Shown here piece after piece: positions 3 through 30,936 of a stretch of 30,936 nucleotides of DNA. The DNA is from a virus (Duplodnaviria > Caudoviricetes): positions 1-30,936 of IMG/VR virus record IMGVR_UViG_3300025637_000039; one strand, 5' to 3'. Every line of letters begins with the position of its first letter. Positions within the stretch are counted from its first letter, which is position 1. Made by a program: the position numbers and the translations under genes. Under the pieces are notes generated by a model. It made no database searches. It was not told where the DNA came from and worked only from the letters and a program-made list of their open reading frames with translations.

Positions 3-557
3 AATGAAAAAAAGATTGGTGATAAAACTTTAATTTTAAATACTAAAATAGAAAGTTGGAAATCTGTAAACAATTTAGCTATTGTTGTAGAAACACCAAA
101 AGCTTTTAAAACAAATATAAAAAAAGGAGATATAATAGTAGTACATCAAAATGTATTTAGAGTATTCTATGATATGAAAGGTGTTAAAAAAAATAGTAGA
201 TCATTTTTTAAAGATGGATTATATTTTTGTGCTATTGATCAAATATATTTGTATAAGAACACAGGAGATTGGCAATCATTTGGAAACAGATGTTTCGTAA
301 TGCCTTTAAAAAATAAAGACTCTTTAAAGCTAGATAAAGAACAAAAGCTTATTGGTATATTAAAATATGGTAATAAGTCCTTAGAAGCGCTTAAAATAGT
401 CCCAGGGGATGTAGTAGGCTTCACGCCTAACAGTGAATGGGATTTTGTTATAGATGAGCAAAGAGTTTATTGTATGAAATCTAATGATATTGTAATTAAG
501 TATGAACACGAAGGAAACGAAGAAGAGTATAATCCTAGCTGGGCAAAAAGCAGTTGA
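3..557 (+). CDS. GroES/Cpn10-like co-chaperonin with two GroES-like units (5'-truncated by window edge)
   Basis: The frame of the listed 174..557 ORF is open back to position 3 (NEKKIGDKTLILNTKIESWKSVNNLAIVVETPKAFKTNIKKGDIIVVHQNVFR...). The C-terminal unit GNRCFVMP...IVPGDVVGF...DFVIDEQRVYCMKSNDIV resembles the GroES pattern (GDRVLV...VKVGDKVLF...IDGEEYLIMRESDIL). The N-terminal unit has AIVVETP...IKKGDIIVV. Confidence 0.6.
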   Translation, partial: NEKKIGDKTLILNTKIESWKSVNNLAIVVETPKAFKTNIKKGDIIVVHQNVFRVFYDMKGVKKNSRSFFKDGLYFCAIDQIYLYKNTGDWQSFGNRCFVMPLKNKDSLKLDKEQKLIGILKYGNKSLEALKIVPGDVVGFTPNSEWDFVIDEQRVYCMKSNDIVIKYEHEGNEEEYNPSWAKSS

Positions 558-777
558 AGAATTAATTAAAGTAGCTAAAGAGGCTATTGTTGATTCAGGT
601 GATGATATAACAGCTGATAGATTAAAAAATGCTGCGGCTACAAAAAAATTAGCTATATTCGATGCTTTCGAAATACTTACTAGAATAGAAGCAGAAGAAG
701 CTTTGTTGAATGATAATCCAAAAGAAGTAAAAGAAGAAAAAGCTTTTAGAGGATTTGCAGAAGGAAGATCTAGGTAA
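502..777 (+). CDS. Putative terminase small subunit
   Basis: 91-aa helical, charged protein directly upstream of TerL and coupled to it (TAATG at 775-779). Overlaps the upstream gene by 56 nt. Function inferred from position. Confidence 0.55.
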   Translation: MNTKETKKSIILAGQKAVEELIKVAKEAIVDSGDDITADRLKNAAATKKLAIFDAFEILTRIEAEEALLNDNPKEVKEEKAFRGFAEGRSR

Positions 778-2981
778 TGTATAAGCAAACATTATACCAT
801 GTTGTCAAAGATGCTATAAAACCTAAAGTTTTAAGTAGACTAAATAGATATAAGAAATGGGAGTACGGTTACAATAAAGAATATGATTTTGTTGTAATAA
901 GTAAAACCGGGGAAATAGGAGAGATATATAATATACAAGGATTAAGAATAGCTTTACCTAAAGAAAAAGATATAAAAGAGTTTTCAACTAATAAATGGGA
1001 ACATACAGAATATCCTAAAGAATTAAAAAGAATTAAATCAGTATTTGACTGGGATGAATATCCCGTTGAATTTAAAGAAAAATGGTATGACTATATTGAC
1101 ACAGAGTTTAAAAGGCGTGAAGATGGTTTTTGGTTTATTAATAAAGACAAGCCTACTTATATTACTGGTACTAACTACATGTACCTGCAGTGGTCCAAGA
1201 TTGACGTTGGGCAGCCAGACTTTAGGGAATCAAACAGATTATTCTATTTATTCTGGGAAGGCTGTAAGGCAGATCAACGGTGTTACGGAATGTGTTATCT
1301 TAAGAACAGACGGTCAGGTTTCTCTTTCATGGCATCAGGCGAAACGGTTAATCAGGCAACAATATCCACAGATTCAAGATTTGGCATTTTATCAAAGTCC
1401 GGGCCAGACGCCAAAAAGATGTTTACTGATAAGGTCGTACCCATTTCAGTTAATTACCCCTTCTTCTTCAAACCAATCCAGGACGGTATGGACAGGCCGA
1501 AGACAGAGCTCGCGTACAGGGTACCGGCGTCGAAGTTTACCAGAAAGAAACTTGACACCAACGAGAAACTTAAGGAGATCTCCGGGCTCGACACCACGAT
1601 CGACTGGAAGAACACAGGGGACAACTCGTACGACGGTGAAAAATTAAAACTATTAGTACACGATGAAAGTGGCAAGTGGGAAAAACCCACAAATATATTA
1701 AACAACTGGAGGGTAACTAAAACTTGTTTAAGATTAGGATCTAGAATTATAGGCAAGTGTATGATGGGATCAACATCAAACGCATTAGACAAAGGAGGGG
1801 CTAACTACAAGAAATTATATTATGATTCAGACGTTAACAAAAGAAACGCCAATGGACAGACTCGTTCAGGACTCTATTCTTTGTTCATACCTATGGAATG
1901 GAACTACGAAGGATACATTGATTCTTATGGCTTACCTGTATTCAATACACCAAAAAAACCGGTTGAAGGACCTCAAGGAGATTTAATTGATACGGGCGTA
2001 ATAGAGTATTGGCAAAACGAAGTTGAGGGGTTGAAAGAAGATCAAGACGGTCTTAATGAATTTTATCGTCAGTTTCCAAGAACAGTAGAACATGCTTTCA
2101 GAGACGAAGCTAAAGAATCTTTATTTAACCTAGCTAAAATATATGAGCAAATAGATTATAATGCTGATTTAAAAAATACCGCTGTTATAACTACAGGTAG
2201 TTTTCAATGGCAAGATGGTGTTAAAGATTCTAGAGTTATATTTATACCAAATAAAGATGGTAGATTCAAAGTGTCTTGGGTGCCACCAATTGAGCTGCAA
2301 AACCGAATGATAATTAAAAATGGTAAGAAATATCCAGGAAACGAGCATTGCGGCGCTTTTGGGTGTGATAGTTATGATATATCAGGTACTGTAGATGGAA
2401 GAGGATCTAATGGCTCTTTGCATGGCTTAACAAAATTTAGTATGGAAAATGTTCCTCCGGATCATTTCTTTTTAGAATATATAGCAAGACCACAAACTGC
2501 AGAAATATTTTTTGAAGATGTATTGATGGCTTGCGTATTTTATGGTATGCCAATATTAGCCGAGAATAATAAGCCTAGATTACTGTATCATTTTAAAAGA
2601 AGAGGCTATAGGGGATACTCTATGAATAGACCTGATAAATTAAAGCTTTCCGTAACAGAAAGAGAAATAGGTGGAATACCTAATTCAAGTGAAGATATAA
2701 AACAAGCACATGCGGCAGCTATAGAAACATACATAAATACCAGAGTAGGATTACTAGAAACAGGGTATGGAAATATGTATTTTCAAAGAACATTAGAGGA
2801 TTGGGCAAGATTTAATATAAACAATAGAACGAAGCATGATGCCTCTATAAGTTCAGGATTAGCATTAATGGCTTGCAATAAAAATAGATATATACCTAGA
2901 GCTAAAGTAGAATATAAAGCTATAGATTTAGGTATTAAACGATACGACAATAAAGGCGGTATGTCTAAAATAATAAAATAA
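777..2981 (+). CDS. terL: Terminase large subunit (crAss-like type)
   Basis: 734 aa. Walker A-like LKNRRSGFSF, Walker B LLVHDESGKW, motif III GSTSN, and RNase H-like nuclease motifs FGCDSYD, ILAENNK and KHDASIS. Followed by the portal. Confidence 0.93.
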   Translation: MYKQTLYHVVKDAIKPKVLSRLNRYKKWEYGYNKEYDFVVISKTGEIGEIYNIQGLRIALPKEKDIKEFSTNKWEHTEYPKELKRIKSVFDWDEYPVEFKEKWYDYIDTEFKRREDGFWFINKDKPTYITGTNYMYLQWSKIDVGQPDFRESNRLFYLFWEGCKADQRCYGMCYLKNRRSGFSFMASGETVNQATISTDSRFGILSKSGPDAKKMFTDKVVPISVNYPFFFKPIQDGMDRPKTELAYRVPASKFTRKKLDTNEKLKEISGLDTTIDWKNTGDNSYDGEKLKLLVHDESGKWEKPTNILNNWRVTKTCLRLGSRIIGKCMMGSTSNALDKGGANYKKLYYDSDVNKRNANGQTRSGLYSLFIPMEWNYEGYIDSYGLPVFNTPKKPVEGPQGDLIDTGVIEYWQNEVEGLKEDQDGLNEFYRQFPRTVEHAFRDEAKESLFNLAKIYEQIDYNADLKNTAVITTGSFQWQDGVKDSRVIFIPNKDGRFKVSWVPPIELQNRMIIKNGKKYPGNEHCGAFGCDSYDISGTVDGRGSNGSLHGLTKFSMENVPPDHFFLEYIARPQTAEIFFEDVLMACVFYGMPILAENNKPRLLYHFKRRGYRGYSMNRPDKLKLSVTEREIGGIPNSSEDIKQAHAAAIETYINTRVGLLETGYGNMYFQRTLEDWARFNINNRTKHDASISSGLALMACNKNRYIPRAKVEYKAIDLGIKRYDNKGGMSKIIK
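1123..1647 (+). CDS. Overprinted +1-frame ORF inside terL, lipoprotein-like signal peptide (candidate o-spanin or envelope lipoprotein)
   Basis: The frame is open from 1045 to 1647. ATG at 1123 has A at -3 and TTTAAAA at -16..-10. N-terminus MVFGLLIKTSLLILLVLTT-C (Cys at 1180). TerL codons avoid NTA before purines throughout, and GC rises locally. Confidence 0.65.
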   Translation: MVFGLLIKTSLLILLVLTTCTCSGPRLTLGSQTLGNQTDYSIYSGKAVRQINGVTECVILRTDGQVSLSWHQAKRLIRQQYPQIQDLAFYQSPGQTPKRCLLIRSYPFQLITPSSSNQSRTVWTGRRQSSRTGYRRRSLPERNLTPTRNLRRSPGSTPRSTGRTQGTTRTTVKN

Positions 2982-5387
2982 ATGATAATACAGACTAACA
3001 CTAACAGTTCATTTCCAAGCCAGGTAGTAAGCGAGGCTGAAAAATCTAGCTTAGATTATGGTATACAAGTAGGTAGAGCTATAGAAGGAGAATGGTTTCA
3101 AGAGGGAAGAGCTGGAAATAGATACGTTCAATCTTACGCTACCTTTCATAGGTTAAGATTATACGCTAGGGGTGAACAAAGTGTTCAAAAATATAAAGAT
3201 GAATTATCAATAAACGGAGACTTATCTTATCTTAATTTAGATTGGAAACCTGTTGCTGTTATATCTAAATTTGTAGATATTGTTGTTAACGGAATGGCTA
3301 ACAAATCTTATGATATTACGACATTTGCACAAGATCCTTTTTCTGTTAAGAGCAGAACAGATTACGCGGCTGCTATTGAAAAAGACATGAATGCTAAACC
3401 TATGCTTGAAAATATAAAGCAAGAATTAGGGATGGATATGGCTCGAACTGGAAATTTAGAAGATCTTCCAGAAAGCAAAGAGGAATTAGATATTCACATG
3501 CAAATGACTTACAAACAGAATGTTGAAATAGCAGAAGAAGAGGTTATTAATAATGTTTTAGCGTTTAATAAATATGATCAAACTAAAGCAAGAGTTGCTT
3601 ACGATTTAGCTGTTTTAGGTATAGGAGCAGTAAAAACAAGATTTGATTTAAGCGAAGGTATTAAAATTGATTATGTTGACCCCGCTCGTATAGTTTATTC
3701 ATACACGGAAGATCCAAATTTTGAAGACATATATTATGTAGGAGAAGTTAAAGCTATAAGTATTCCTGAATTAAAAAAACAATTTCCGGATATACCAGAT
3801 GAAGAGCTTCAAAGAATACAAAATATGCCAGGCAATTCTCAATACGTTACTGGTTGGGCAAATTATGATCAAAACACTGTGCAGGTTATGTACTTTGAGT
3901 ACAAGACTTATGTTGATCAAGTGTTTAAAATAAAGAAAACAGATCAAGGCTTAGAAAAAACATTAGAAAAACCTGACACCTTTAATCCACCAGAAAATGA
4001 TAATTTTGATAGAGTATCTAGATCTATAGAAGTTTTATATACTGGAGCTAAAGTTCTTGGAAACAATTACATGCTGGAGTGGAAGATGGCAGAAAATATG
4101 ACCCGACCTACCGCGGATACAACTAAAGTAAATATGAATTACTGTATATCTGCGCCTAGAATGTATAAGGGTAGAATAGAATCTTTAGTAAGTAAAATTA
4201 CAGGTTTTGCTGATATGATTCAATTAACCCATTTAAAATTACAACAAGTAATGTCTAGAATAGTACCAGATGGTGTATTCTTAGATATGGATGGTTTAGC
4301 TGAAGTTGATTTAGGTAATGGAACTAATTATAATCCAGCGGAAGCATTAAATATGTATTTCCAAACTGGTTCTATTGTTGGTAGATCACTCACGCAAGAT
4401 GGTGAATTAAATAGAGGTAAAGTTCCTATTCAAGAATTGTCATCGTCATCGGGACAAGCTAAAATACAAAGTTTAATTGGTACGTATCAATATTATCTTC
4501 AAATGATAAGAGACGTAACTGGTTTAAACGAGGCAAGAGATGGTAGTGCCCCAGACAAAGATGCTTTACTTGGATTACAAAAAATGGCCGCTAACGCCTC
4601 TAACACAGCTACAAAACATTTACTAGAGTCGTTATTATACTTAACAGTTAGAACTTGCGAAAATGTAAGTTTAAAAGTAGCGGATTTAATTCAAAACCCT
4701 TTAACTGAAAATTCTTTAATAAATTCCATAAGTACATTTAATGCTGAAACGTTGGAAGAACTAATGAATTTACAATTGCATGATTTTGGTATTTATATTC
4801 AATTAGAGCCTGAAGAAGAAGAAAAAGCTTTGCTTGAGCAAAACATTCAAATGGCCTTGCAAACAGGAACAATTGCTTTATCTGATGCAATAGATATACG
4901 AGAAATAAAAAATACTAAATTAGCTAATCAATTCATAAAACTAAGACAAACACAAAAAATTAAAAGAGAACAAGAGCAGCAGCAAGCAAATATTCAAGCT
5001 CAAGCTCAAGCCAATGCTGAATCTGCAGAAAAAGCGGCTATGGCAGAAGTTCAAAAACAACAAGCATTAACTCAGGAGAAAGTTAGTATTGAACAAGCTA
5101 AATCACAATTTGAAATACAAAGAATGCAGACAGAGGCTCAAATAAAAAGAGAGCTAATGGCTGAAGAGTTTCAATACAATATACAACTAGCTCAGGCTCA
5201 AATGGGTGCAACAAAAGCAAAAGAGCAAGAAATTGAAGATAGAAAAGATCAAAGAATAAAATTACAAGGAACACAACAATCCGAACTAATACAACAAAGA
5301 CAAACAGAAGGATTACCTAAGAATTTTGAATCATCAGGTAATGATGTTCTGGGTGGTTTTGGACTAGAAGAGTTTGGCCCTAGTTAA
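2982..5387 (+). CDS. Portal protein
   Basis: 801 aa right after TerL, with size and layout typical of crAss-like/P22-type portals (RLYARGEQ, IRDVTGLNEARDG) and a long Q/E/A-rich coiled-coil C-terminus (barrel). Confidence 0.88.
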   Translation: MIIQTNTNSSFPSQVVSEAEKSSLDYGIQVGRAIEGEWFQEGRAGNRYVQSYATFHRLRLYARGEQSVQKYKDELSINGDLSYLNLDWKPVAVISKFVDIVVNGMANKSYDITTFAQDPFSVKSRTDYAAAIEKDMNAKPMLENIKQELGMDMARTGNLEDLPESKEELDIHMQMTYKQNVEIAEEEVINNVLAFNKYDQTKARVAYDLAVLGIGAVKTRFDLSEGIKIDYVDPARIVYSYTEDPNFEDIYYVGEVKAISIPELKKQFPDIPDEELQRIQNMPGNSQYVTGWANYDQNTVQVMYFEYKTYVDQVFKIKKTDQGLEKTLEKPDTFNPPENDNFDRVSRSIEVLYTGAKVLGNNYMLEWKMAENMTRPTADTTKVNMNYCISAPRMYKGRIESLVSKITGFADMIQLTHLKLQQVMSRIVPDGVFLDMDGLAEVDLGNGTNYNPAEALNMYFQTGSIVGRSLTQDGELNRGKVPIQELSSSSGQAKIQSLIGTYQYYLQMIRDVTGLNEARDGSAPDKDALLGLQKMAANASNTATKHLLESLLYLTVRTCENVSLKVADLIQNPLTENSLINSISTFNAETLEELMNLQLHDFGIYIQLEPEEEEKALLEQNIQMALQTGTIALSDAIDIREIKNTKLANQFIKLRQTQKIKREQEQQQANIQAQAQANAESAEKAAMAEVQKQQALTQEKVSIEQAKSQFEIQRMQTEAQIKRELMAEEFQYNIQLAQAQMGATKAKEQEIEDRKDQRIKLQGTQQSELIQQRQTEGLPKNFESSGNDVLGGFGLEEFGPS

Positions 5388-5419
5388 AATTGCAAACAAT
5401 TATTTAATTATATTATATT

Positions 5420-8180: not shown

Positions 8181-8253
8181 ACGACGATAGCCTACTACTA
8201 TTAATATATACTAGCTATTGTCACACTTACAAATTATTTAATTATATTATATT

Positions 8254-11314: not shown

Positions 11315-14300
11315 ATGGCTGAAGTTAAAAATACTTTTCTTAAGGGGAAAATGAACCAAGATCTTGACTCTCGTATTGTGCCTAATGGTGAATATAGAGA
11401 AGCTAGAAACTTATCTATAAGTAGATCAGAAGGGTCTACAGTGGGTGAGTTTGAAAATGTTTTAGGTAATATAGCTATATCTAGTTTAACCTCTATAGGA
11501 GCGCCTGCTACAACAGAAATAATTGGTAAACTTATTGATGAGAATTCAAACATGGCTTACTTTATGGCTACTGATTGGAATCCAGGTGATGAATCTAGGG
11601 CTCCAGGAACAGCTAAGTGTTATATAGTAAGTGTAGACCTGTCTTCAACAAACCCCCCTTTAATACTGGTTCAAGGTAGTTTTTTAAATTTTAATCAAGG
11701 GTACATAATAACTGGTATAAATTTAATTGAAAATTTATTGTTTTGGACAGACAATTTAAACCAACCAAGAAAAATAAATGTTTCTTTAGCAACTAGTAAT
11801 TCATCTCATTACACAACAGAAGATCAAATATCTGTAGCTAAATATGCTCCCTTTGAGCCAATACTAGCTATGGAGAGGGTGCAAACAACTTTAAATGGGG
11901 ACGTTACAGCTTCCGATACTATAGTTGTAGCAGATTCTACCGGTATAAAAGTAGGTGATATTGTTACTGATAAAGTAAAACTTGGTGCACAACAAATATT
12001 AGAATTAGTTACAGTTATAGGAAAACCTGCTGTAGATCCGCTAGCTATTCCTCCTGTTGCAGCAAACACATTAACATTATCTATTCCTGTTACTATAATA
12101 GATGGTACTCCTTTAGATTTCAGCAGACCTTCTATGACTAATAAGAATAGATTATTTATGTCTAATCATTCTTCAGGTGCTGTAACAATTATTCCTTCTC
12201 CGGCTTTACCAACACCTAATCCAATAACAGCTGTATACACTATAAGCGCAACCGGAGCTGATGTTGATTTTTTATACAGCGGTAATAACGGAATACCTAA
12301 AGTAGGTGATTTAGTTAGTGGGCCAGGAATAGATCCTGATACTAGAGTTTCTTTTGTTGAGGTGCTAGACAATGACGCGGTCACACCTTCACAATCTATA
12401 TCTATAAAACTAAATAAAGAAACTACAACTGCTGATTCAGATGTTATATCAATAAGCGATAACCCTGATTATGACGCTAATTGGAAAGGTGATGAAAATT
12501 TTTTAGAGGATAAGTTTGTAAGGTTTAGTTATAGGTTTAAATTTGAAGATAACGAATATTCTTTAATGGCGCCTTTTAGCCAACCTATGTTTATACCAAA
12601 ACAATACAGTCAATTTGGCGGAGGCTTGTTATCTCCTACAGAAGATATGGATGACGCTTATAAATCTACTATAGTTGCTTGGTTTGAAAATAACATAAAC
12701 AATATATTGCTAAGAATTCCAGTAATGGAAGATACACCAGAAAATTTAATCAGTAACTTTAAAATAACAGATATTGATATATTATATAAAGAGTCTGACG
12801 CTTTAGCGGTAAAAGTACTTGAAACAGTACAATTGTCTAATCCATCACCTACCTTTTCCTCAATAGCATTTCACGATGCTATTCACGGTATAAATACTAA
12901 ATACTTTTTAGACTACGATTATAGCTCTACGAAGCCATATAAAACATTACCCAGCAATCAAGTAACTAGGGTATCAGATAGAGTTCCAGTAAGAGCTCTT
13001 GCTCAAGAAGTTATAGGTAACAGAATAGTTTATGGAAATTACTTAGACAGACACACGGGGCCGAACTCAATAGCTTTTAGCGCAAACGCTAGTAACAAAT
13101 CTATAAAGTTTGATAATTATACTCAATTCCCAAAACATCAATTAAAACAAAACAGAACGTATCAAGTAGGCTTTGTACTTTCAGACAGATACGGTAGACA
13201 ATCAGATGTTATTTTATCATCTTATGACAATGTTCCGGGCATATCGGGATCTACTGTTTTTAATCCTTACAATAACTTAGCCGAGCAAACCGCTACCCCA
13301 ATTTTAGATTGGCTAGGAGATGCTTTAGTAGTTACTTTAAATGAAGCTGTACAGTCAACCTACAATCCAGCTACAGGAACTCCTGGTATATATTCTATTG
13401 ATAATCCTTTAGGTTGGTTTTCTTACAAAATAGTAGTAAAGCAAACAGAACAAGAATATTATAATGTTTATTTACCTGGTTTTGTTAACGGCTATCCTGT
13501 TACTGAAAATAATGAAAGAAATAAAAGTTTTTTCACAACTCTTTTAGGTGACAATGTAAATAAAATACCTAGAAATCTAAAGGAAGTAGGCCCTAATGAT
13601 AGAGATTTCGGAAGTGATGAAGGTCTATATATTAGAGTTAATAATCCGCTTATAAATAATAAAAGCGGTGCAATATATCCAAAAACTGAAGCATGGAACG
13701 CTCAGTACTATCCAGCTGGAATAGAGCAAGAGGTTATACAAATAGCTACAGTCAGAGACATGGAAATACAAGCTATACCTTTCAAGCCAGACGCGCAAAA
13801 AGGAGAGTATGGAGAATCTAAGATATTAAGTGTCTATGAGTATGAGAATCCTCCTTACGGCGGTGCTATATCAGGTGTAAATGAAACACCTGAACCTACA
13901 GGTTCTATACCTTGGGGAACTTCAGGACCAGATGCACCTTTATACAGTGCAGATTCAAATCCTTTTGTTATGAAAGGCAATCAATCAGAAAATATAAATA
14001 ATCCAATAGGTGCTTATGTTACTACCTTCTCTGTAAACGCTCCGCCCCCGCCTCCTGATCGTCCTGTATTTTCTATGGTACCTTTCTTATCCGTAGCTGA
14101 AACAGAGCCAGTTGAATCTTTATTAGATATATTTTTTGAAACGTCGTTATCTGGAAATTTAGCAGAATTAAATGCTTTAGTTGATTCTGAGTATGGAGGA
14201 TTAACAAGTTCTAATTTTGCAGCTGCTGACTTTTTTGAAAATGCAGCAATTTCAACTATAGTAGGAACACCTTTCCAGTTTTTAGACGGCGCAGGGACTG

Positions 14301-15511
14301 CTATAAATGCTTCTCTTGTTAATATAGATAGTATAAGTATAATAGATGGAAATAATATAGCTTCAGATCCTAATAACCTTCCTTTTACGATAACACAAAA
14401 CGGAACAAGTTTTGAAATTAAAACTAACACTACATTTTTTTATGATACCACTGTAGATTTAGGTTATACAGGCGTATATACTATAACAGCTAACACAACT
14501 TATACTAGTGGTGCTGGAACTTTTCCTGACACTATAATATTACCAAAGATATCGTTAAAAAATTCAGCTCCTGTAATAAGTGCATTTACACAACCTACAA
14601 ATAGAACAACGCAAGCAAACCAAATTATAATAAATACATTAGCAGCTGTAAACGGTAGCGCAAAAACAAGTGTTAATACTCGAGAATTAGCATGGTCATT
14701 AGATCCGAGTAGAACAGATTTTTCTATAGATGAAAATACAGGTGATTTAACTTCTACTGAAGAATTAATTGACGATACGCTTTACAATGTGATAGTCAAG
14801 GTAACTGATCTTAATGGTAATGGCTCACCTAATGAGTTATCAGATACAGCAACCGTAACTTTCCAAGTTGGAGAACCTAGAGTAAACAGAGCTTTATGTG
14901 AAGGAAGCGGAGGGGCTTCGTTTACACCGATTACTACTTGTGGAGATAATTTACAAGTCCAATTTTTAAAGAGTAGCACGCTAGTTAATTTGGGGCCGCA
15001 AACGGTAGTAGGTCCGTCGAAAACAGTAACATATCCAGCTACAAGTAAAATAGACGGAAACATTTATAATGTACTTGCTAAAAATGATGGAAGTGCATCA
15101 TTGCCTCCGGTAACACATACAACAGGAGCTCTGGAACAAGGAGCGGTGGCTATAACATGTACTCTTACTAATGCAGGCGGTAGTGCAGGGCAAGAAGATG
15201 ATATTATTGGATTTACGATCCAATATAAACCTATTGGATCTGGTAGCTGGAGTCAAGCTACTGAGCTTATAGGTGGAGAACAAGAGTTTGTATACAACGA
15301 AGAATTACAAGTAGGAGTTGATGCTGCTGTTTCTATAACAAAGATTTTTAATGTTGCTGGAGAATATAGGGTTTTAACCACAACAATAACTGGTGGCCAA
15401 TGCTCTTTAGGTCCTCCAGATGATCAATTCACTAAGTTTACAGTTGATTTTGAAGATGCGAATTATCCTAGATCAAATCCGAGTAATTCATGTACTGATG
15501 CTCCGTTGTAA
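11315..15511 (+). CDS. Tail stabilisation (muzzle/nozzle-like) protein, N-terminal part, with inserted domains and a C-terminal cadherin/Ig-like region
   Basis: 1398 aa. Motifs typical of crAss-like stabilisation proteins: GKMNQDLDSR...EYREARN...ENVLGN, LLFWTDNLNQPRKIN, FSYRFKFEDNEYS, AQEVIGNRIVYGNY and NRTYQVGFVLSDRYGRQS. Confidence 0.7.
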   Translation: MAEVKNTFLKGKMNQDLDSRIVPNGEYREARNLSISRSEGSTVGEFENVLGNIAISSLTSIGAPATTEIIGKLIDENSNMAYFMATDWNPGDESRAPGTAKCYIVSVDLSSTNPPLILVQGSFLNFNQGYIITGINLIENLLFWTDNLNQPRKINVSLATSNSSHYTTEDQISVAKYAPFEPILAMERVQTTLNGDVTASDTIVVADSTGIKVGDIVTDKVKLGAQQILELVTVIGKPAVDPLAIPPVAANTLTLSIPVTIIDGTPLDFSRPSMTNKNRLFMSNHSSGAVTIIPSPALPTPNPITAVYTISATGADVDFLYSGNNGIPKVGDLVSGPGIDPDTRVSFVEVLDNDAVTPSQSISIKLNKETTTADSDVISISDNPDYDANWKGDENFLEDKFVRFSYRFKFEDNEYSLMAPFSQPMFIPKQYSQFGGGLLSPTEDMDDAYKSTIVAWFENNINNILLRIPVMEDTPENLISNFKITDIDILYKESDALAVKVLETVQLSNPSPTFSSIAFHDAIHGINTKYFLDYDYSSTKPYKTLPSNQVTRVSDRVPVRALAQEVIGNRIVYGNYLDRHTGPNSIAFSANASNKSIKFDNYTQFPKHQLKQNRTYQVGFVLSDRYGRQSDVILSSYDNVPGISGSTVFNPYNNLAEQTATPILDWLGDALVVTLNEAVQSTYNPATGTPGIYSIDNPLGWFSYKIVVKQTEQEYYNVYLPGFVNGYPVTENNERNKSFFTTLLGDNVNKIPRNLKEVGPNDRDFGSDEGLYIRVNNPLINNKSGAIYPKTEAWNAQYYPAGIEQEVIQIATVRDMEIQAIPFKPDAQKGEYGESKILSVYEYENPPYGGAISGVNETPEPTGSIPWGTSGPDAPLYSADSNPFVMKGNQSENINNPIGAYVTTFSVNAPPPPPDRPVFSMVPFLSVAETEPVESLLDIFFETSLSGNLAELNALVDSEYGGLTSSNFAAADFFENAAISTIVGTPFQFLDGAGTAINASLVNIDSISIIDGNNIASDPNNLPFTITQNGTSFEIKTNTTFFYDTTVDLGYTGVYTITANTTYTSGAGTFPDTIILPKISLKNSAPVISAFTQPTNRTTQANQIIINTLAAVNGSAKTSVNTRELAWSLDPSRTDFSIDENTGDLTSTEELIDDTLYNVIVKVTDLNGNGSPNELSDTATVTFQVGEPRVNRALCEGSGGASFTPITTCGDNLQVQFLKSSTLVNLGPQTVVGPSKTVTYPATSKIDGNIYNVLAKNDGSASLPPVTHTTGALEQGAVAITCTLTNAGGSAGQEDDIIGFTIQYKPIGSGSWSQATELIGGEQEFVYNEELQVGVDAAVSITKIFNVAGEYRVLTTTITGGQCSLGPPDDQFTKFTVDFEDANYPRSNPSNSCTDAPL

Positions 15512-15541
15512 TAAAAGAAAAAAACAAGTAATAAATATAAT

Positions 15542-17170
15542 ATGCCAATAACATTAGAAGTAGGATATTTTAACTCATTTTACATGAAGAGATTAGCTGA
15601 TCTTCCTATAGGTAATGGTGAAACAGGAGCTACAAATTATACAACTCCAACCACTAGCATAGTGCAAGAAGATTGGTATATAGAAGAGTCTAGAATACGA
15701 GGAGGTTATAATAATGTATCAACAGATTTAGGTGTAAAAGCTTATATCGTAGAAGATAACGATGCACAACAACGTAGAAAAAATTCATTAATATATTCAG
15801 GAGTATTTAATTCTAGAACAGGTGTAAACCAGTCTAATCAATTTAGTACAGCTGAAGAAACAACTAGAAGTGTTGATCCAGCCGGGGGAAGTATACAAAA
15901 GCTTTATGCTGAAGATACAAACTTAATAATATTTCAAGAGGATAAAGTAAACAGAGCTTTAATAGACAAAGATGCAATATATTCAGCAGAAGGATCTGCT
16001 ATAACAACTACAGCTAATTTAGTTATAGGTCAAATAGTCGCTTATGCTGGAGAATATGGAATATCAACTAACCCAGAATCTTTTGCTGTTTACGGATATC
16101 AAAAATATTTTGCTGATCGTAATAGAAACGCTGTATTAAGATTATCTAGAGATGGTATAACTGAAATATCTAACTACGGAATGATCGATTTCTTTAGAGA
16201 TAAGTTATCTTTAGTTGGAACAACTGGAAAAATAATAGGTTCTTACGATATATATAATAAAAATTACATAATATCTTTACAAGAAGCTAATAATAATAAT
16301 TACAATACACTAGGTTTTGAAGAAGCCACTAATGGTTGGATTAGTTTTTATGACTACAATCCAAGTAGCGGGTTTAGTTCGCAAGGTCAGTTTTTCACAA
16401 CCAACGGTACATCGGTATGGAAACACTATTCTACCGCTGTTAATAGAAGTAATTTTTACGGTACAGATAATAAGTCTTCTGTTAAACTAATATTAAATCC
16501 TGATCCTACAAGAGTAAAAACATTCAAGACAATAGACTATGAAGGCACGAGCGGATGGGAAGTTATATCTTTAATTTCAGATGATACAGGTACAGATTTT
16601 GTCAACGGAGTATGGGTTAATAATAGTGAGAAAGGAACTAGCACTGCTGATCCAGCAACTTTTACTATAACAAACGGTGGAAGCGGGTTTTATGTTACAG
16701 GTAACAATGTAGGTACTTCAACAGATGGATTTGGTGTTGGAATGAAAGTCAATATAGTTGTAGGCGGTGGCGGTGGTGTAAGCCAAATATCTATAATTGA
16801 TCCTGGATTTGGATATCAGCCAGGAGATGTGCAACAAATAGACATAAATAGCGGAAGCGCTATTGGAGTTTATGCTACATTTGTATTAGATACATATACT
16901 AACATATATAGTAGAATTTATAGTTACAATGAAGGTTTATATTTTGAAAGCAATATTCCTTATAGAGCTGGGTTTGATAGAAAACAAAACAGATATGTTG
17001 CCCCTATATTAAATAATTCACCAAACCCTTTACCTGGTCAAGTATTATCCGGACCTAGTAATACAGGTATAAAAGCTTATTATACAACAGTAACAATGCA
17101 AACAGATACTACTACAAATCCAGGTGGATTAAAAGAGTTGTTCGCAGTAGGATCAACATACGGAAGATAA
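15542..17170 (+). CDS. Tail stabilisation protein, C-terminal-like part (beta-propeller-type)
   Basis: 542 aa with IEESRIRGGYN, LIYSGVFNSRTGVN, GSIQKL and GEYGISTNPESFAVYG...YFADRNRNAVLRLSRDGITEIS, typical of the C-terminal half of P22 gp10-like/crAss muzzle proteins. Confidence 0.65.
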   Translation: MPITLEVGYFNSFYMKRLADLPIGNGETGATNYTTPTTSIVQEDWYIEESRIRGGYNNVSTDLGVKAYIVEDNDAQQRRKNSLIYSGVFNSRTGVNQSNQFSTAEETTRSVDPAGGSIQKLYAEDTNLIIFQEDKVNRALIDKDAIYSAEGSAITTTANLVIGQIVAYAGEYGISTNPESFAVYGYQKYFADRNRNAVLRLSRDGITEISNYGMIDFFRDKLSLVGTTGKIIGSYDIYNKNYIISLQEANNNNYNTLGFEEATNGWISFYDYNPSSGFSSQGQFFTTNGTSVWKHYSTAVNRSNFYGTDNKSSVKLILNPDPTRVKTFKTIDYEGTSGWEVISLISDDTGTDFVNGVWVNNSEKGTSTADPATFTITNGGSGFYVTGNNVGTSTDGFGVGMKVNIVVGGGGGVSQISIIDPGFGYQPGDVQQIDINSGSAIGVYATFVLDTYTNIYSRIYSYNEGLYFESNIPYRAGFDRKQNRYVAPILNNSPNPLPGQVLSGPSNTGIKAYYTTVTMQTDTTTNPGGLKELFAVGSTYGR

Positions 17171-28300: not shown

Positions 28301-28625
28301 TTTAGATAGAGCTTTAGCAGAAGCTAGAGGTGTGGCTGAAATGTTTGACAATAGAAATAGTGAAATGCAAAGAATAGCATTAGCTCTAGGGTGGAGAACT
28401 TGGAATGTTGGTGCTAAAAATGAGGAGTTTGATCTTATAAAAATGGAAGCTAAGCAAGCTAAGAAAGATAAAAAAGCAGAAGAAAAAGCGCAATATAAAG
28501 CTTATTTAAGAAGAGTTGGATCAAAATTAAGCTTAGAAGAAGCTAACGCTTATAGAAGAATCAAAAGCGCTAAGTTGAAAAAAGAATACATATTAAAAAT
28601 AGGTGAAGAAAAAGGTATAAAATAA
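19365..28625 (+). CDS. Giant (3086 aa) multidomain virion/ejection protein with zincin protease and HAD phosphatase domains
   Basis: Uninterrupted ORF. HEVGH at 22605-22619. HAD motifs DFDDT (25929), LTAR (26163), K, and FADD (26328). The helical C-terminal region resembles large internal virion proteins. Confidence 0.8.
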   Translation: MYTNQQGNKVSVEEMQNLAQEAGVSVEVYAKAAGYSLQSEDVTKDPEPKIKDADLLDPTFQKDAAADADVVSQPMTASQAEYVEPEDTESQSVDTSLDSPDPAPRFIEFKGKGDRPGAIVYEDTYLETKAGQPGYPDTFDEYAAAFNTTPQSSSTEEIAIKATSNEKVFESLNNSFKGIDLSEKTSSFDLNPGNTKIYNQEEEVVRPTLNQLFEGSGVDFEEIDIVQEGDVNAVLGSEALRARIKNPETGEYIYSEILELESDGSFMNNDKIEKFLDENKSYLDLPKWTRSKNKMIAKYKQWKNSELDPIINKARVEAEQAYIVNPDLFKPYDKKIFVGGFNTSTTVTETINPYQKEIAQEINRLERKGVKENLEAQAKINVRQNLKQADINEAIRETRAKFINASSNTEKAQAFLYASETFVKKEEAKAYNKNNEEAQIAKEGANKYQKQQQAAVDVFSATPSENQSVDDFITQQKNKLQPIIDELNIEIPEDTKEKINSPKLNMLLGLDEEVLLPKSFYNIMMALEDAKNANISNYNDKRIKMAESIGDISDIDVAMEATAKNYELVEKYAVNAGLGFQDIVVNTTMLGLNILSLGQSEKVAQLGSDYVEYTKEIRDSYQRDVSFDEAFSTPGNTGKFIAQEVANQLPIFLAMAASGGSAAYVIGASSAGGKMMDMQNEIATGTAEYSPIKLWATSLGYGLAEGLFAQVTTVPILKRAKLNWMNNGKESVVNNSMREYAKTQYKGLIYEPILEASGEAATVGVQNLIDGKPFMQGMDHASTSGLAFGFAFAAIPFLKGMYNSQFSTYETRSEIRTMQNELDGLNKKLNLNLFANSNLSDKSKSILKGKQDLLKQSIEEKSIQLADKIKQQEVIVTNNLTEGAKNEVVKIINKQAELENIAIEIQKNPNISNKERAQLIAEVKSQYDVAVKARNEAVKDETMLKNGTEWAAFKGLNRSESQEYLDTADAMLSGERNGKQASKEDINDRAYDLYFGDKIRVENKKLGRSNSSLFKNFKSLETIDEAIVEVNNDDTIDSEDKKKIILKLKNGNDGYWNPASGTMIAIVENQVKNQRKYIKTHEVGHKAFEMLLGNPKNNAAFKGISDQLLSTLKATDRKTYDKFIKDGIDDDAGNIDPTEVISRFMEYVADDQITNVQKAKGISGLFGVMIQKTFGSDYKFDFRGEQDIFNFVVGLGKKLKDGTLTTADIKKAKESKVIKDLPTSDTTTDVDKKVSFSKASLQTELNTLKENEFDYDPEQFQSLVSNLETKIRIAGKKEAAKPKPKTLGFDTSEESVIGQINNLVPKEITTNKEYKENKKVQNEIDKAFKPNGIISNIIKGRFGGGDLFIETLNSVKNRAVRYDPAAERKKAGNNDPVTFAEFIFSNVNFSKLDAAKKLAIKAADQKKKTDLDNKEAQGKTTEEDSGPTADTRKKYKPLISNPKLIPSFISSEIKTKLANVASKLKSKLSDRPKGKNAQTTPLVAEIKKAIGNVVKDPKALPKQIINRMGNPKDGSYQKFLIDNKKSILENMTTTYLQSAIPAAIEKSVGGTYALDSDGKRKKDSNGNDIFKPKFVPYPEWVGKEIDREKVSTNKKGGTSGNQIVRRAIQKEVDGRFEDSITDEDFVANFVGSDGKVIRGKRESLGKALAEEAGFEVFVSELKNDKVVTQKDLDEDVIGQFEGKQAGDFVSDVRQEFKDNQEALGEILGDNTVALVSRDIERGTVKFSKGKRQALTEIANARSSKKVNEIIGIEKQAINNKNRVQKQKDFEKIIIKYNLSLEAFDGGALKNSGAIRTRPGKSGADANKLNKWLAANPKVKFSPNQVWYALSNGDWIKAGTKYNKAKNITTIQIPTLEAIAKVGDGNATLVANTNRLYYGSSDPAYIAARKLAAKNSVDASVYKTGRVTTDFFGVKAIEKFKQNMLLMERVAYELQDAVAGGMPKEIAAMIIEGGYQATSGFIKIAAGFKYKSKVFEYALSGKPNQTRGKKYREEHNPPASTVGGTLLWAIVNNQVGDVMPYVKKNYYQTQLSVKDDAKIDDAGLDGTLPEGYSLLNDPVIRLIKSGIGLSSLIDPNTGLSMAQEYGVKVDDSALQLQPDVIEKQGELVERQLTDPKFTKKDSQKFIDQFIKLAPALNKANIINNKKLAYPFKEKVTSKKLLDRSNTIQKAINNGRSVSFSSAPKKIRVFDFDDTLARTNSNVLYTMPDGTEGSIDAATFAKDASMMQAEGAIFDFSEFSKVMDGKKGPLFEVAKKIAQARGTKDVFVLTARPQDAAGPIQEFLAELGLDIPLENITGLADGDPKAKANWMVGKVAEGYNDFYFADDHLGNVKAVKDVFNTFDVKGKVQQAKIKFSKGLDKGFNDMIERQTGTESFKEFSKGVAQRRGKKVGKFKIFVSPSAEDFRGLTQYKFAGKGKQGEADQKFFEEALMDPYFKGVAAVEAARETIKNDTKALFKIFKPVKKKLNKLVPGIDFTYDGAVRVYLWNKAGIEIPGLTKRDNKKLNDVVANDPELSAFADALLLVSKQDTWPAPTEYWEAKTTLSDLNTLTEKTNRKEYLKEFIENVDIIFSEKNLNKVEALYGKASRTAIENAIYAMKTGSNSPNQNGDVITNRWLKWVNNSIGTIMFFNRRSALLQLTSVTNFLNWSDNNLAKAALAFANQPQYWKDWAMIFNSDKLKQRRSGLKSDVQESEIANAAKNTEDKIGSIIAYLLKIGFSPTQIADSIAISSGGATFYRNRVNTYKKQGLDVKEAETKAFEDMSKLSDESQQSGDPALVSQQQRSVAGRLILSFQNTTMQYTRLMKKSGQDLINRRGDPKTHISRILYYGALMNFIFNALSQTAFALIPGFDEEEEEDKVKRDEKLEEKASRVLNGMADSIIRGTGIYGAVVTTLKNTFNTWKREADKGFKGDQAKTLLEAANISPAIGSKLRKIYSAIQAYQFDKAVMEKHPWSVTIDGKFNPSATYSVIGNVASATLNLPLDRALAEARGVAEMFDNRNSEMQRIALALGWRTWNVGAKNEEFDLIKMEAKQAKKDKKAEEKAQYKAYLRRVGSKLSLEEANAYRRIKSAKLKKEYILKIGEEKGIK
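19538..19678 (+). other. Candidate programmed -1 ribosomal frameshift signal and transframe segment
   Basis: A_ACT_TTT, then a 6-nt spacer, then a 9-bp stem (19551-19559 with 19571-19579) whose loop GATGC can pair with GCATC at 19593-19597. The -1 frame is open from 19535 to TAG at 19676-19678. Confidence 0.5.
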
Positions 28626-28984
28626 TGAAGTTTAAATATTTTACTTACGGAGAGTTTGATTCTCCAGACTTAAAAGGTAGTGGTAAAAATGTAAGTGATG
28701 AACTTATAAGCATGCTAGATATTGCTCGTAAAAAATATGGTAAAGCTATTAATCTTAACTCAGGGTTTAGAACAGTTGAACATAATAAATCTGTTGGAGG
28801 GAAACCTGATTCGTCACATTTAAAAGGCTTAGCGGTTGACATTGCATGTAAAAACTCTACAGACAGGTTTAAACTTGAAGGTGTATTAAGAGAAGTTGGA
28901 TTCAAAAGAATAGGTATGGGTTCAACATTTATACATGTAGATATAGATAAAGATAAATCACAAAATGTCCTTTGGACATACTAA
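28625..28984 (+). CDS. Peptidase M15 family endolysin (Zn peptidoglycan peptidase)
   Basis: SGFR..HN..VGG...SSHLKGLAVDI and FIHVD motifs (SxHxxGxAxD plus HxD). Coupled to the giant gene by TAATG. Confidence 0.88.
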   Translation: MKFKYFTYGEFDSPDLKGSGKNVSDELISMLDIARKKYGKAINLNSGFRTVEHNKSVGGKPDSSHLKGLAVDIACKNSTDRFKLEGVLREVGFKRIGMGSTFIHVDIDKDKSQNVLWTY

Positions 28985-28994
28985 AACAAAAACT

Positions 28995-29132
28995 ATGAAT
29001 ATTAAATGCGGATCACCATTCAAATTAAAAGATGCTTGCTATAAAAAAGTTAAAGCACAGTATAAGGTATTTCCGTCGGCTTATGCTAGCGGAGCAATAG
29101 CTAAGTGTAGAAAAAATAAAGGTAAAAAATAA
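28995..29132 (+). CDS. Small basic protein (45 aa), not in the ORF track
   Basis: MNIKCGSPFKLKDACYKKVKAQYKVFPSAYASGAIAKCRKNKGKK* with start context AAAACAAAAACT-ATG. I recall DACY.KVK..Y.V.PSAYASGA..KCRK as a recurrent motif in marine phage proteins. Confidence 0.8.
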   Translation: MNIKCGSPFKLKDACYKKVKAQYKVFPSAYASGAIAKCRKNKGKK

Positions 29133-29156
29133 TAAATAAAAGTAAAAATAATAATT

Positions 29157-29615
29157 ATGAGAGATTTAGATTTAAGAAAGCAATTAAAATCCTTTGGAAA
29201 AGGATTGATTAAAGGAGTAGCAGCTTCGGTTACAGGAGGAGCAAGCTTAGGAGCAAATGTTGCAAAAAACTTTGCACAACCTAAAGTTGGCAATTTGCCA
29301 AGCATAACAGAAGCAGGAAGCAATCAGAAACCTACAAAAAAAGCTTCTACCGGCATGAGGGCTACTAGTAAAAAACTAAAAGGAGCAAAAGCTATTAGTA
29401 AAAAAATGCAAAAATCAAAAAAACTTGAAAAGCTTCCGGCTACGTTTACTAGCGCTAAGCAAGCGGAGATTAAAACTGTAAAAACAAAATCTCCCTCACC
29501 TAAGATTAGCAAAGCTAAACCTACTGTTAAAAAAACAAATAGTAATAAAAAAGTTAAGACAAAGGTTAAAACAAATAAAAGAGGAGTAGTTAAGATTAAA
29601 ACAAAAATAAAATAA
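29157..29615 (+). CDS. Lysine-rich, histone H1-like basic protein
   Basis: 152 aa with a very K/T/S/A-rich C-terminal two thirds, a good A-rich start context, and coupling to the next gene (TAATG). Confidence 0.65.
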   Translation: MRDLDLRKQLKSFGKGLIKGVAASVTGGASLGANVAKNFAQPKVGNLPSITEAGSNQKPTKKASTGMRATSKKLKGAKAISKKMQKSKKLEKLPATFTSAKQAEIKTVKTKSPSPKISKAKPTVKKTNSNKKVKTKVKTNKRGVVKIKTKIK

Positions 29616-29878
29616 TGTACCAATCACCATTAAGCAAAGTTAGAAAAAGCAAAAAGGGGGCATCTCTTAGACGTTGGTTTAAAGAAGAATGGCAGACACC
29701 TAGTGGAGATAAAGACTATAGCGGTGGTGAAAACTTATTCAGACCAAAGAAAAGAATAAATAGCAAAACAGCTACAACCTGGAGCGAGTTAACTCCTGCT
29801 GAAAAAACAGCTGCTCAAAAAGAAAAAAATAGTAAAGGAAGAGTTAGTAGATTTAAAAAGAAAAAAAGGAATAAATAA
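29615..29878 (+). CDS. Small basic protein with LRRWFKEEW motif (DUF5872-like)
   Basis: 87 aa with GASLRRWFKEEW...FRPKKRINSKTATTWSELT, resembling the C-terminal half of DUF5872-type viral proteins. Confidence 0.65.
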   Translation: MYQSPLSKVRKSKKGASLRRWFKEEWQTPSGDKDYSGGENLFRPKKRINSKTATTWSELTPAEKTAAQKEKNSKGRVSRFKKKKRNK

Positions 29879-29976: not shown

Positions 29977-30936
29977 TTATCCATCGCACGCTAAACAATC
30001 TTCACTCATAGCTTTCTGCGCTATATCGCCACGCAAAACAGATTCTGTTCTAGTATAATACAAAGTCTTAACACCTTTCTTCCAGGCATCAAAGTGAACT
30101 TTGTTCAACCATTTAGGTGTTGCTTCAGAAGGAAATGCTAAATTCAAACTAACTGATTGATCTACATATTCCTGCCTAAGACCTGCTTGATTAACTAACT
30201 CCAATTGATTGATCTCTTTAAAGGTTTTAAAAACTTCCTTGGCGGGTATGTCATGAGCCAGGGTAATACCATCAAGCTCACTAATGTTTTGAACACTACC
30301 ACCATCAGCCAGTATTTTATCCCATGTTTCATTATTATTAATTTTTAATTTTCTTAACAGCTTTACTAGCGTCGGGTTTTTCCTAATGAAAGTCCCTTTC
30401 GCACTTTGCTCTGTAAAAACATTTGCAGCCCACGGCTCAATACCCGGTGAAACATTACCGCTAAGCTTACTATTAGAAACAGTAGGAGCAATAGCACGGA
30501 GATGAGTATTACGCATACCGGTACCAATACACCATAAAGGCTCTCCATAAATTTCCGCAAGATCTCTTGAGGCTCTTTCACTTTCGATTTTAATTTGTGA
30601 AAATATTTTCCTAGTCTCAAACTGAGCAAGTAAACCTTCAAAAGGTAATCCCTTTTCTTGGAGATATGTGTGCCATCCAAGTACACCCAATCCGAGCGCT
30701 CTTCCTTTTTGAGCAGAACGAATGGCATTTTCAAAACCTCTAAGTCCTTTTGCTCTTTGAATAAATTCCTCCATAACCCCATCAAGAAACCACGTAGCGT
30801 GGTATATAAGGTTAGTGTCTTTCCATTCTTCATATTTAGCTAAGTTTAATGATGATAGACAGCAAACAAAGCTGTGGTTCTCATCTGTTGTTAATGTTAT
30901 TTCTGAACATATATTAGTCATATGTACTTTTAGTCC
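29977..30936 (-). CDS. nrdA: Ribonucleotide reductase class I alpha subunit (5'-truncated by window edge)
   Basis: The frame is open to the window edge (GLKVHMTNICSEI). Contains catalytic NxCxE, VCCLSSLNL, AIAPTVSNS, GIEP, DQSVSLN, the KTLYY tyrosine pair and C-terminal CLACDG. Confidence 0.93.
   Translation of the reverse strand, partial: GLKVHMTNICSEITLTTDENHSFVCCLSSLNLAKYEEWKDTNLIYHATWFLDGVMEEFIQRAKGLRGFENAIRSAQKGRALGLGVLGWHTYLQEKGLPFEGLLAQFETRKIFSQIKIESERASRDLAEIYGEPLWCIGTGMRNTHLRAIAPTVSNSKLSGNVSPGIEPWAANVFTEQSAKGTFIRKNPTLVKLLRKLKINNNETWDKILADGGSVQNISELDGITLAHDIPAKEVFKTFKEINQLELVNQAGLRQEYVDQSVSLNLAFPSEATPKWLNKVHFDAWKKGVKTLYYTRTESVLRGDIAQKAMSEDCLACDG
30366..30833 (-). CDS. Overprinted +1-frame ORF inside nrdA, basic protein with a long hydrophobic segment
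   Basis: 155 stop-free codons on the same strand as nrdA. Start context TTAAACTTAGCTAAAT-ATG. nrdA uses CTT/ATT/GTT wherever NTA would create a stop. Hydrophobic run at aa ~99-128. Confidence 0.55.
   Translation of the reverse strand: MKNGKTLTLYTTLRGFLMGLWRNLFKEQKDLEVLKMPFVLLKKEERSDWVYLDGTHISKKRDYLLKVYLLSLRLGKYFHKLKSKVKEPQEILRKFMESLYGVLVPVCVILISVLLLLLFLIVSLAVMFHRVLSRGLQMFLQSKVRKGLSLGKTRR

Follow-up and report, generated by a model that had tools for sequence, protein, structure and literature searches.

Genes nested out of frame in a phage gene and carrying a lipoprotein leader are known from Rz1, which lies within Rz, and from T7 18.7, which lies within 18.5 (in part, PMC6139136). Here, we describe a hidden open reading frame (ORF) in the +1 frame of terL, the terminase large subunit gene, of IMG/VR virus record IMGVR_UViG_3300025637_000039 (Duplodnaviria; Caudoviricetes), from which the whole stretch that was analysed, hereafter the window, spans positions 1 to 30,936 (30,936 nucleotides). 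Like Rz1 and T7 18.7 as presented in that portion of the spanin survey, the hidden ORF is nested out of frame behind a lipoprotein-like leader, and its predicted product shares with theirs a largely unstructured, Pro-containing mature chain, putative periplasmic Cys residues and a link to lysis genes, which in this case is one of exclusion. The host gene of Rz1 and T7 18.7 is that of an i-spanin, whereas the hidden ORF lies in terL with no i-spanin linked to it. It further differs in its mature chain of 108–183 amino acids (aa) across 53 open lineages, which is basic and poorly conserved, in a non-canonical lipobox, and in being present in some close relatives and absent from others. In the survey, the two spanin parts are separated by ~1 kb at most, and widely separated parts would be missed (in part, PMC6139136); the survey makes no mention of terminase.

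Two other comparisons are informative. By annotation, T7 19.2 and 19.3 (NC_001604) occupy the +1 frame of gene 19 and thus, like the hidden ORF, lie wholly inside terL, but they are hypothetical proteins of 85 and 57 aa from an unrelated phage family and by eye have no lipoprotein leader. An earlier note on this DNA, made from the sequence alone, knew of no description of an envelope lipoprotein overprinted on terL; no earlier description of the hidden ORF was found in the literature searched (few subscription journals and no supplements), but nesting in terL as such is not without precedent. Overprinted accessory viral genes, as characterised in part of PMC6195259, resemble the hidden ORF in having arisen de novo in a second frame and in their restricted phylogenetic range, biased composition and predicted disorder. 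The hidden ORF differs from these in lying within the packaging ATPase of a dsDNA phage, in having a selected membrane-targeting leader, and in that it appears to have replaced a natural gene.

As the earlier note had claimed, the +1 frame of terL is free of stops for 206 codons (Table 1), giving 200 aa when read from TTG 1045. With terL's own codon usage, 11.0 stops are expected in this run and none is observed (log10P −9.0, or −7.0 under window-wide codon usage), placing the chance of such an opening at ~1e-7 to 1e-9. For the 11 other plus-strand genes of the window that were tested, the best +1 run is in every case above log10P −3, with the minus-strand nrdA being the exception to otherwise unremarkable +1 runs. 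About 15 junctions at which Leu, Ile or Val precedes a purine had been reported to avoid codons ending in TA (NTA); we count 16, all of which do so. The hidden ORF corresponds to terL codons 104–290, covering KNRRSGFS at 1302 and ending just before LLVHDE at 1650, which we take to be the Walker A-like and Walker B-like motifs, respectively. The reported jump and subsequent drop in GC content are also seen: GC at third codon positions (GC3) is 0.14 in terL before the ORF, 0.35–0.46 in the first two thirds of the ORF, 0.77 at 1476–1643 and 0.29 past the stop. An identical 186-aa product (100% identity) is found in five independent contigs (L167–L170 and L247), and assembly error is thus not the explanation.

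The open frame is shared by most near relatives. In an unselected sample consisting of the window and 80 terL relatives at 74–90% identity, fetched regardless of the state of the second frame, the +1 frame is open in 58/81, with "open" scored over terL codons 116–244. Over codons 110–244, where expected stops were counted, the 58 open sequences would be expected to have ~268 stops, and the 23 broken ones have 94 observed versus 114 expected. The conserved open frame that the earlier note proposed to look for is therefore there, and +1 stops, which it would have read as evidence against a gene, are not the rule among close relatives. For comparisons between lineages, 66 of 241 sequences were removed as duplicates or partial, and clustering at 88% nucleotide identity gave 53 open clusters, from 153 open sequences, and 22 broken clusters; this set was partly fetched with the hidden protein and is enriched for open lineages, such that 58/81 is the unselected figure. 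In the open lineages, NTA occurs before a purine in 0/477 cases, a zero that largely follows from the definition of "open," while its frequency before a pyrimidine (331/537) is that of the background (62%). The loss of NTA only where it precedes a purine argues that the stop was removed rather than the codon. The rise in GC3 is likewise confined to open lineages and to codons 121–320. Other frames or antisense ORFs were considered as the cause of the opening and rejected, as the other four frames across the overlap are open in 0/53 open lineages.

Farther from the window, the frame closes. In a distant set of 81 terL genes at 62–69% identity plus three cultured phages (with L165 and L166 dropped as below the threshold), the +1 frame is broken in 84/84, over a GC3 range of 0.20–0.65 that includes GC-rich genes. 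Unlike the window, the cultured flavobacterial phages elemoA_13-1A, Panino and phi13:2 all have a broken +1 frame, and phi38:1 and Gundel_1 fell under the alignment threshold and were left unscored. With near relatives mostly open and all distant genes broken, we conclude on these sequence grounds that the ORF originated within this clade of marine Flavobacteriia-type phages. On a quick terL tree built outside the overlap, we count 12 state changes, 7 of which are forced by starred branches. Open and broken sister phages are also more divergent inside the overlap than outside (third-position values of 0.41–0.48 versus 0.49–0.71), which suggests that the segment moves by recombination besides decaying. 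The alternative raised in the earlier note, a recombinant patch from a higher-GC phage without a conserved ORF, thus captures the exchange of the segment but misses that a conserved ORF travels with it and that GC-rich outgroups are all broken. Overall, the frame is open beyond chance, its range is narrower than that of terL, and, as described below, its product is under selection, which together point to overprinting.

Selection on the product is most evident in the leader. The mean hydropathy of its core is 2.80 in open lineages, compared to 1.28 in broken lineages and 1.11 in stop-free simulations. Leu is found at codon 130 in 53/53 open versus 9/22 broken lineages and at codon 132 in 52/53 versus 11/22, while a small residue (Thr/Ser) is found at codon 136 in 51/53 versus 9/22 and Cys at codon 137 in 51/53 versus 8/22, with Tyr instead in 2/53. 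A clean core, the small residue and the Cys occur together in 42/53 open lineages, 1/22 broken lineages and a fraction of 0.001–0.002 of the stop-free simulations. Consistent with this, the codon for terL Leu137 is TTG or CTG in 51/53, compared to 25/130 for the Leu codons that precede a pyrimidine in the rest of the overlap. The first Cys (codon 135) is present in 53/53 open and 22/22 broken lineages; it is forced by Met-Tyr in terL and is uninformative on selection, and we rejected it as evidence. The lipoprotein-like leader claimed in the earlier note is thus selected, but the Cys was misplaced, as the selected one is the second and not the first of TTCTC. The segment before the Cys has a basic n-region and an uncharged, hydrophobic h-region, and AlphaFold predicts a helix at residues 2–34. 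A six-frame scan of 26 records (~1.16 Mb), with criteria set after the leader had been seen and Thr allowed at −1, recovers the leader in 13/14 open records and finds no other out-of-frame match.

The start codon is likely ATG 1087, yielding 186 aa. ATG 1123, from which the product had previously been read, is kept in 4% of the 153 open sequences versus 83% for ATG 1087, and among contigs of the runs holding this phage, T1124A, which abolishes ATG 1123, is a common variant. Two further candidates were rejected as general starts: ATG 1054 is present in only 33% of the 153 open sequences, while TTG 1045 is equally common in broken frames (93% versus 82%), and 24 open sequences have stops downstream of it. 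Where ATG 1087 is not usable, another start (codon 108, 109 or 111) is available in 18/21 lineages, compared to 12/32 (p 6e-4), and broken lineages show no such link (5/16 versus 2/6). The sequence upstream of ATG 1087 is A-rich and without a Shine-Dalgarno, like the window's real starts, a pattern that we assume to be typical of Bacteroidota initiation. It has a G at −3 that is forced by terL, which makes weak initiation at ATG 1087 plausible. The motif TAnnTTTG, which we take to be the Bacteroidota −7 promoter, is not enriched upstream of the ORF in open lineages. Contigs from RNA runs cover 400–3200 in four runs from two studies, although such contigs cannot show strand, frame or level.

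Beyond the leader, the predicted product is variable and polar. The R/S/T/P-rich tail described in the earlier note is confirmed by composition (25 R+K, 5 D+E and 47 S/T/P among the 153 mature residues), and hydropathy falls over codons 138–289 in open lineages only. The suppressed synonymous variation that the earlier note proposed as a check is not seen over most of the mature part, as codons 161–300 are instead more diverse at synonymous sites in open lineages. Apart from the leader helix, AlphaFold gives a predicted local distance difference test score (pLDDT) of <50 for residues 36–186 (mean pLDDT of 41.7). The shallow alignment of a young protein would yield low pLDDT in any case. Two cysteines in the mature chain occur at similar rates in open and broken frames (50/53 versus 18/22 and 53/53 versus 22/22). 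Searches of Pfam, PHROGs and the ESM Atlas (best score 0.79) return no family match. A profile search of 1.84 billion proteins gives 147 matches, of which 128 are explained by terL frames and the remaining 19 are, by eye, chimeras, from a frame switch or otherwise, that contain a +1 piece; in an earlier homolog search with 70 matches, the 29 examined were all +1 calls or chimeras. With no stand-alone homolog in the 1.84 billion proteins, the sequence record indicates that the hidden gene arose in place.

Taken together, these patterns strongly support an overprinted ORF that is maintained by selection and has both an export leader and a selected Cys. We regard it as almost certainly a real protein-coding gene, and its product is very probably exported and, with a little less assurance, predicted to be lipidated. 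In Bacteroidota, surface export of lipoproteins depends on K-(D/E)2 or Q-A-(D/E)2 after the Cys (in part, PMC5080379). Two acidic residues at +2 to +9 are found in 0/153 open sequences, and the lipoprotein would thus be expected to face the periplasm.

A possible function is suggested by what occupies the lysis cassette in related phages. Relatives often carry a stand-alone lipoprotein gene beside the M15 peptidase endolysin, and the window has none. One such family, A1, was found at 28 viral loci, 4 of whose records have no terL and were left out. A1 proteins consist of a lipobox, an aromatic (Tyr/Trp-rich) core and a polar disordered tail, and their genes adjoin those of the M15 endolysin, a gene transfer agent (GTA)-type holin and a transmembrane (TM)-plus-coil protein (in L634, A1 sits between the endolysin and the holin). 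In all 24 scored carriers, the +1 frame of terL is broken. They correspond to 15 clusters, of which 11 lie within the clade (p 6e-6 versus a background of 57/80 open), and occupy 13 places on the terL tree built outside the overlap (with L670 left out as short), 11 of which are forced by starred FastTree branches; they are often sister to open lineages. In the carriers L649 and L650, the leader is intact and stops are found only at codons 191/193, suggesting that the frame decayed once the stand-alone gene had been acquired. As a separate observation, four A1 carriers (L649, L650, L651 and L672) have only one or two stops (terL codons 191–193) and may be recent pseudogenes or truncated short forms. 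Other broken-frame relatives have spanin-like lipoproteins adjoining an endolysin (L334, L339) or o-spanin-like and u-spanin-like genes by one (G001, G003), and another lipoprotein is absent from four of the five open cases that cover both lysis slots (G052, G056, G002, G054, and the window plus L327).

A second family, A4, occupies the same lysis slot as A1; 4 of its 11 records have no terL and were left out, leaving 7. A1 and A4 resemble the hidden protein in having a lipobox followed by a polar, S/T/P/N/R-rich disordered tail. They differ from it in being ordinary genes beside those of the endolysin or holin; their xSC boxes look canonical, and their aromatic core is conserved. Neither matches a Pfam family at the cut-off, and A4 has no PHROG match. 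A TM-plus-coil, i-spanin-like family, K20, is found 4–35 kb away in 6 open-frame and 5 broken-frame records out of 26, and in neither the window nor L327; its best PHROG match is a weak one to a holin.

We consider a role in lysis slightly favoured. In the mechanism that we propose, ribosomes would initiate internally at ATG 1087 on late mRNA, Sec would export the chain, and Lgt and LspA would lipidate and cleave it at Cys 1186, after which Lol would sort the lipoprotein to the outer membrane in a periplasm-facing orientation. Once the holin and M15 endolysin have acted, the basic, disordered chain would destabilise the envelope, helping lysis in place of the stand-alone lipoprotein of the lysis cassette. 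The full scheme, an overprinted lipoprotein at the inner face of the outer membrane that aids lysis and replaces a stand-alone lipoprotein, seems to us evenly poised between right and wrong. Its boldest form, in which a lysis protein born de novo acts independently of an i-spanin as a single lipid-anchored chain, is swapped by recombination and is interchangeable with the stand-alone lipoprotein, is a possibility that we advance tentatively and with more doubt than confidence.

Several observations weigh against this scheme. Neither Cys fits the canonical lipobox [LVI][ASTVI][GAS]C, with LTTC failing at −1 and TCTC at three positions; at 33 aa, the leader is also long. Deviations from the consensus have been tested, and an atypical box such as AWAC has been validated (in part, PMC6139136), such that a non-canonical box lowers but does not exclude the prospect of lipidation. 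The mature sequence is poorly conserved across the 53 open clusters. No i-spanin-like gene is found in the window plus the 14.8 kb upstream in the 99%-identical relative L327 (~45 kb). The frame is open in 5/7 A4 carriers (records that form about three lineages and of which three have Pro in the core; G054 is among the carriers), so exclusion is not general, and the rule that a phage has either the hidden gene or a stand-alone lipoprotein, but never both, is rejected. The complete broken genomes G051 and G055 have no small stand-alone lipoprotein, their only lipobox being on a 350-aa outer membrane protein (OMP)-like protein. Profile comparison detects no similarity between A1 and the hidden protein (hhalign probability 0.8%), and the latter lacks the Tyr/Trp core of A1. 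The flavobacterial host is itself one that we infer from terL kin and gene layout.

For these reasons, the o-spanin identity suggested in the earlier note is not established: the host gene is terL, no linked i-spanin was found in the ~45 kb covered, the lipobox is non-canonical, and, with A4 co-occurring, the protein is not a proven o-spanin. Nor does it resemble a u-spanin, as we find no C-terminal TM domain, the C-terminal half being basic and polar with no helix past residue 34. Judged by its sequence, the hidden protein is a member of neither class but may plausibly act in the same step.

Alternatively, the product may be a lipoprotein that acts outside lysis, for example in superinfection exclusion, where it would block a receptor from within the periplasm, or in envelope tuning. 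The lipoproteins T5 Llp and Cor mediate superinfection exclusion by blocking the receptor. The lack of an i-spanin partner in this phage and the co-occurrence with A4 are as this explanation would have it, and the repeated gain and loss implied by the 12 changes on the tree fits an accessory gene. We nonetheless hold it to be somewhat unlikely, as expression with a late packaging gene would probably come too late for typical exclusion, the excluded gene A1 sits among lysis genes, and the hidden chain is variable and predicted to be disordered. Receptor blockers are usually folded.

Slightly less probable is that the product is exported or membrane-anchored without a lipid, as a periplasmic protein cleaved by signal peptidase I (SPI) or as a basic-tailed signal-anchor protein of the inner membrane. 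The non-canonical lipobox and the Tyr that replaces the second Cys in two lineages would be accounted for, and C-T-C fits the rule of small residues at −3 and −1 for SPI. However, Ser would serve SPI equally well and could be had synonymously through CTC at codon 137, yet it is used in 0/153 open sequences. In Bacteroidetes, moreover, Gln follows the site of SPI cleavage (the Q-rule; in part, PMC5837995), and no Gln comes after the Cys here. The avoidance of Ser and Gln favours lipidation, and thus signal peptidase II (SPII), over SPI. In the two lineages with Tyr, the first Cys still follows Thr, and 153/153 open sequences have one or more Cys that comes directly after a small residue, although this count is weak because the chance of a miss is low.

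A programmed +1 frameshift that fuses the N-terminus of terL to the hidden frame is very improbable. Such a fusion would explain why the start wanders (codons 104, 108, 109 and 111), why an ATG ahead of the core is missing from 4/153 open sequences, and why terL/+1 chimeras occur in databases. On the other side, there is no invariant slippery site in codons 110–125, lost starts are compensated by new ones in the proportion given above, all four ATG-less sequences have TTG at codon 111, and the chimera junctions are scattered as from indel errors. With ~120 residues ahead of it in such a fusion, the signal peptide would escape processing. Finally, the notion that there is no gene, only a GC-rich recombinant patch or an RNA or DNA signal such as a packaging site that lacks +1 stops by chance, is largely refuted, for although it fits the third-position divergence of sister phages and the GC3 raised over the whole overlap, outgroup genes are broken across the GC3 range of 0.20–0.65, NTA stays at background before pyrimidines, the leader is T-rich in opposition to the GC shift, GC-boosted simulations make its hydropathy rarer, and the higher synonymous diversity of codons 161–300 speaks against a conserved nucleic-acid structure.

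If the boldest form of the lysis scheme is correct, the hidden gene would represent a new, spanin-independent route through the outer membrane as well as a natural example in which a newly born gene has taken over from an older one. The hidden gene also provides a testable answer to a question posed in section 15 of PMC6139136, namely how the outer membrane is breached without a recognisable spanin pair, or with a lipoprotein far from the i-spanin. We estimate ~15,000 terL-matching stretches for this phage group in IMG/VR. Since gene callers reject such overlaps, a marine phage group that ranks among the commonest may carry an unannotated envelope gene. Since natural variants of this de novo gene, with the second frame or lacking it, number in the hundreds, its birth, selection and loss would be directly measurable.

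The window contains the late genes of a Flavobacteriia-type phage (Table 1). Its layout matches that of the Group 2 putative Flavobacteriaceae phages (in part, PMC5332604), with which the window's group shares phi38:1-like structural genes and a GroES gene before terL, with GroEL upstream in relatives. By terL, the cultured kin are Elemovirus, Pachyviridae and Pervagoviridae phages at 31–45% identity.

Table 1. Features of the hidden +1 frame and of the surrounding genes in the window.
Feature	Position	Strand	Basis or remark
Whole stop-free +1 frame	1027..1647	+	206 codons plus stop
Overprinted gene, likely 186 aa from ATG 1087	1087..1647	+	ATG conservation
Selected hydrophobic leader core LLILLVLTT	1153..1179	+	Hydropathy, codon fixation
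First Cys, alternative lipid site possible when Thr precedes	1180..1182	+	Forced by terL Met-Tyr
Second Cys, likely lipid-attachment residue, +1 of 153-aa mature chain	1186..1188	+	Cys selection
Mature region, variable, polar, basic, predicted disordered	1189..1647	+	Composition, AlphaFold
GroES-like gene	Before terL		Window gene annotation
terL, terminase large subunit, 734 aa	777..2981	+	phrog_6681, E 4.5e-165
Portal, virion proteins, crassvirus-like muzzle genes, 3086-aa protein			Window late genes
M15 peptidase endolysin	28625..28984	+	PF08291, E 4e-19
nrdA	29977..30921	−	

A second candidate overprinted gene is found in the +1 frame of nrdA, where a 157-codon stop-free run extends over window 30366–30833 on the minus strand (log10P −8.4 under window codon usage). 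Its core (nrdA codons 104–165) is stop-free in 15/15 sequences, each expected to have 3–6 stops, although 10 of the 15 come from one lipoprotein-family sample; it is also stop-free in 5/5 further records that fully cover it. An ATG near codon 106 is present in most relatives and absent from the window. In its product, basic regions flank a long hydrophobic stretch; no Pfam or PHROG family matches it, and the ORF occurs with open and broken terL frames alike. If this is truly a second overprinted membrane protein, overprinting would be a habit of this phage group. In this phage group, a single slot holds one of two different ribonucleotide-reductase-like families, K48 (~620 aa) or K49 with a small-subunit-like gene (G002, G003 and G005 versus the window, G052, G054 and G056).

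In relatives, we also observe a recurring accessory module, absent from the window, that combines K34 (OMP-like, 350–400 aa, ending in Phe or Leu), K20 (here a TM-plus-coiled-coil protein) and K28 (secreted, thioredoxin-like). It is located at L634:43-1812 and, in G052, G055, G056, G059 and G060, just after the giant virion gene. K34 has a lipobox in the broken-frame genomes G051, G055 and G059 and none in the two open ones or in G053 and G060. Within the window, two adjacent genes at 11315–17170 match the crassvirus muzzle family phrog_14478, one to its N-terminal and the other to its C-terminal part, and the 3086-aa protein (19365–28625) has a weak polynucleotide-kinase-like match at residues 2183–2365 (phrog_415, E 3e-5). 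Three small, very Lys/Arg-rich proteins (55, 152 and 87 aa) are encoded after the endolysin at 28965–29878, and many similar basic ORFs recur in relatives. Finally, an identical 20-nucleotide sequence is present at 5400–5419 and 8234–8253, before the ATGs at 5420 and 8254, and is possibly a late promoter or initiation signal.

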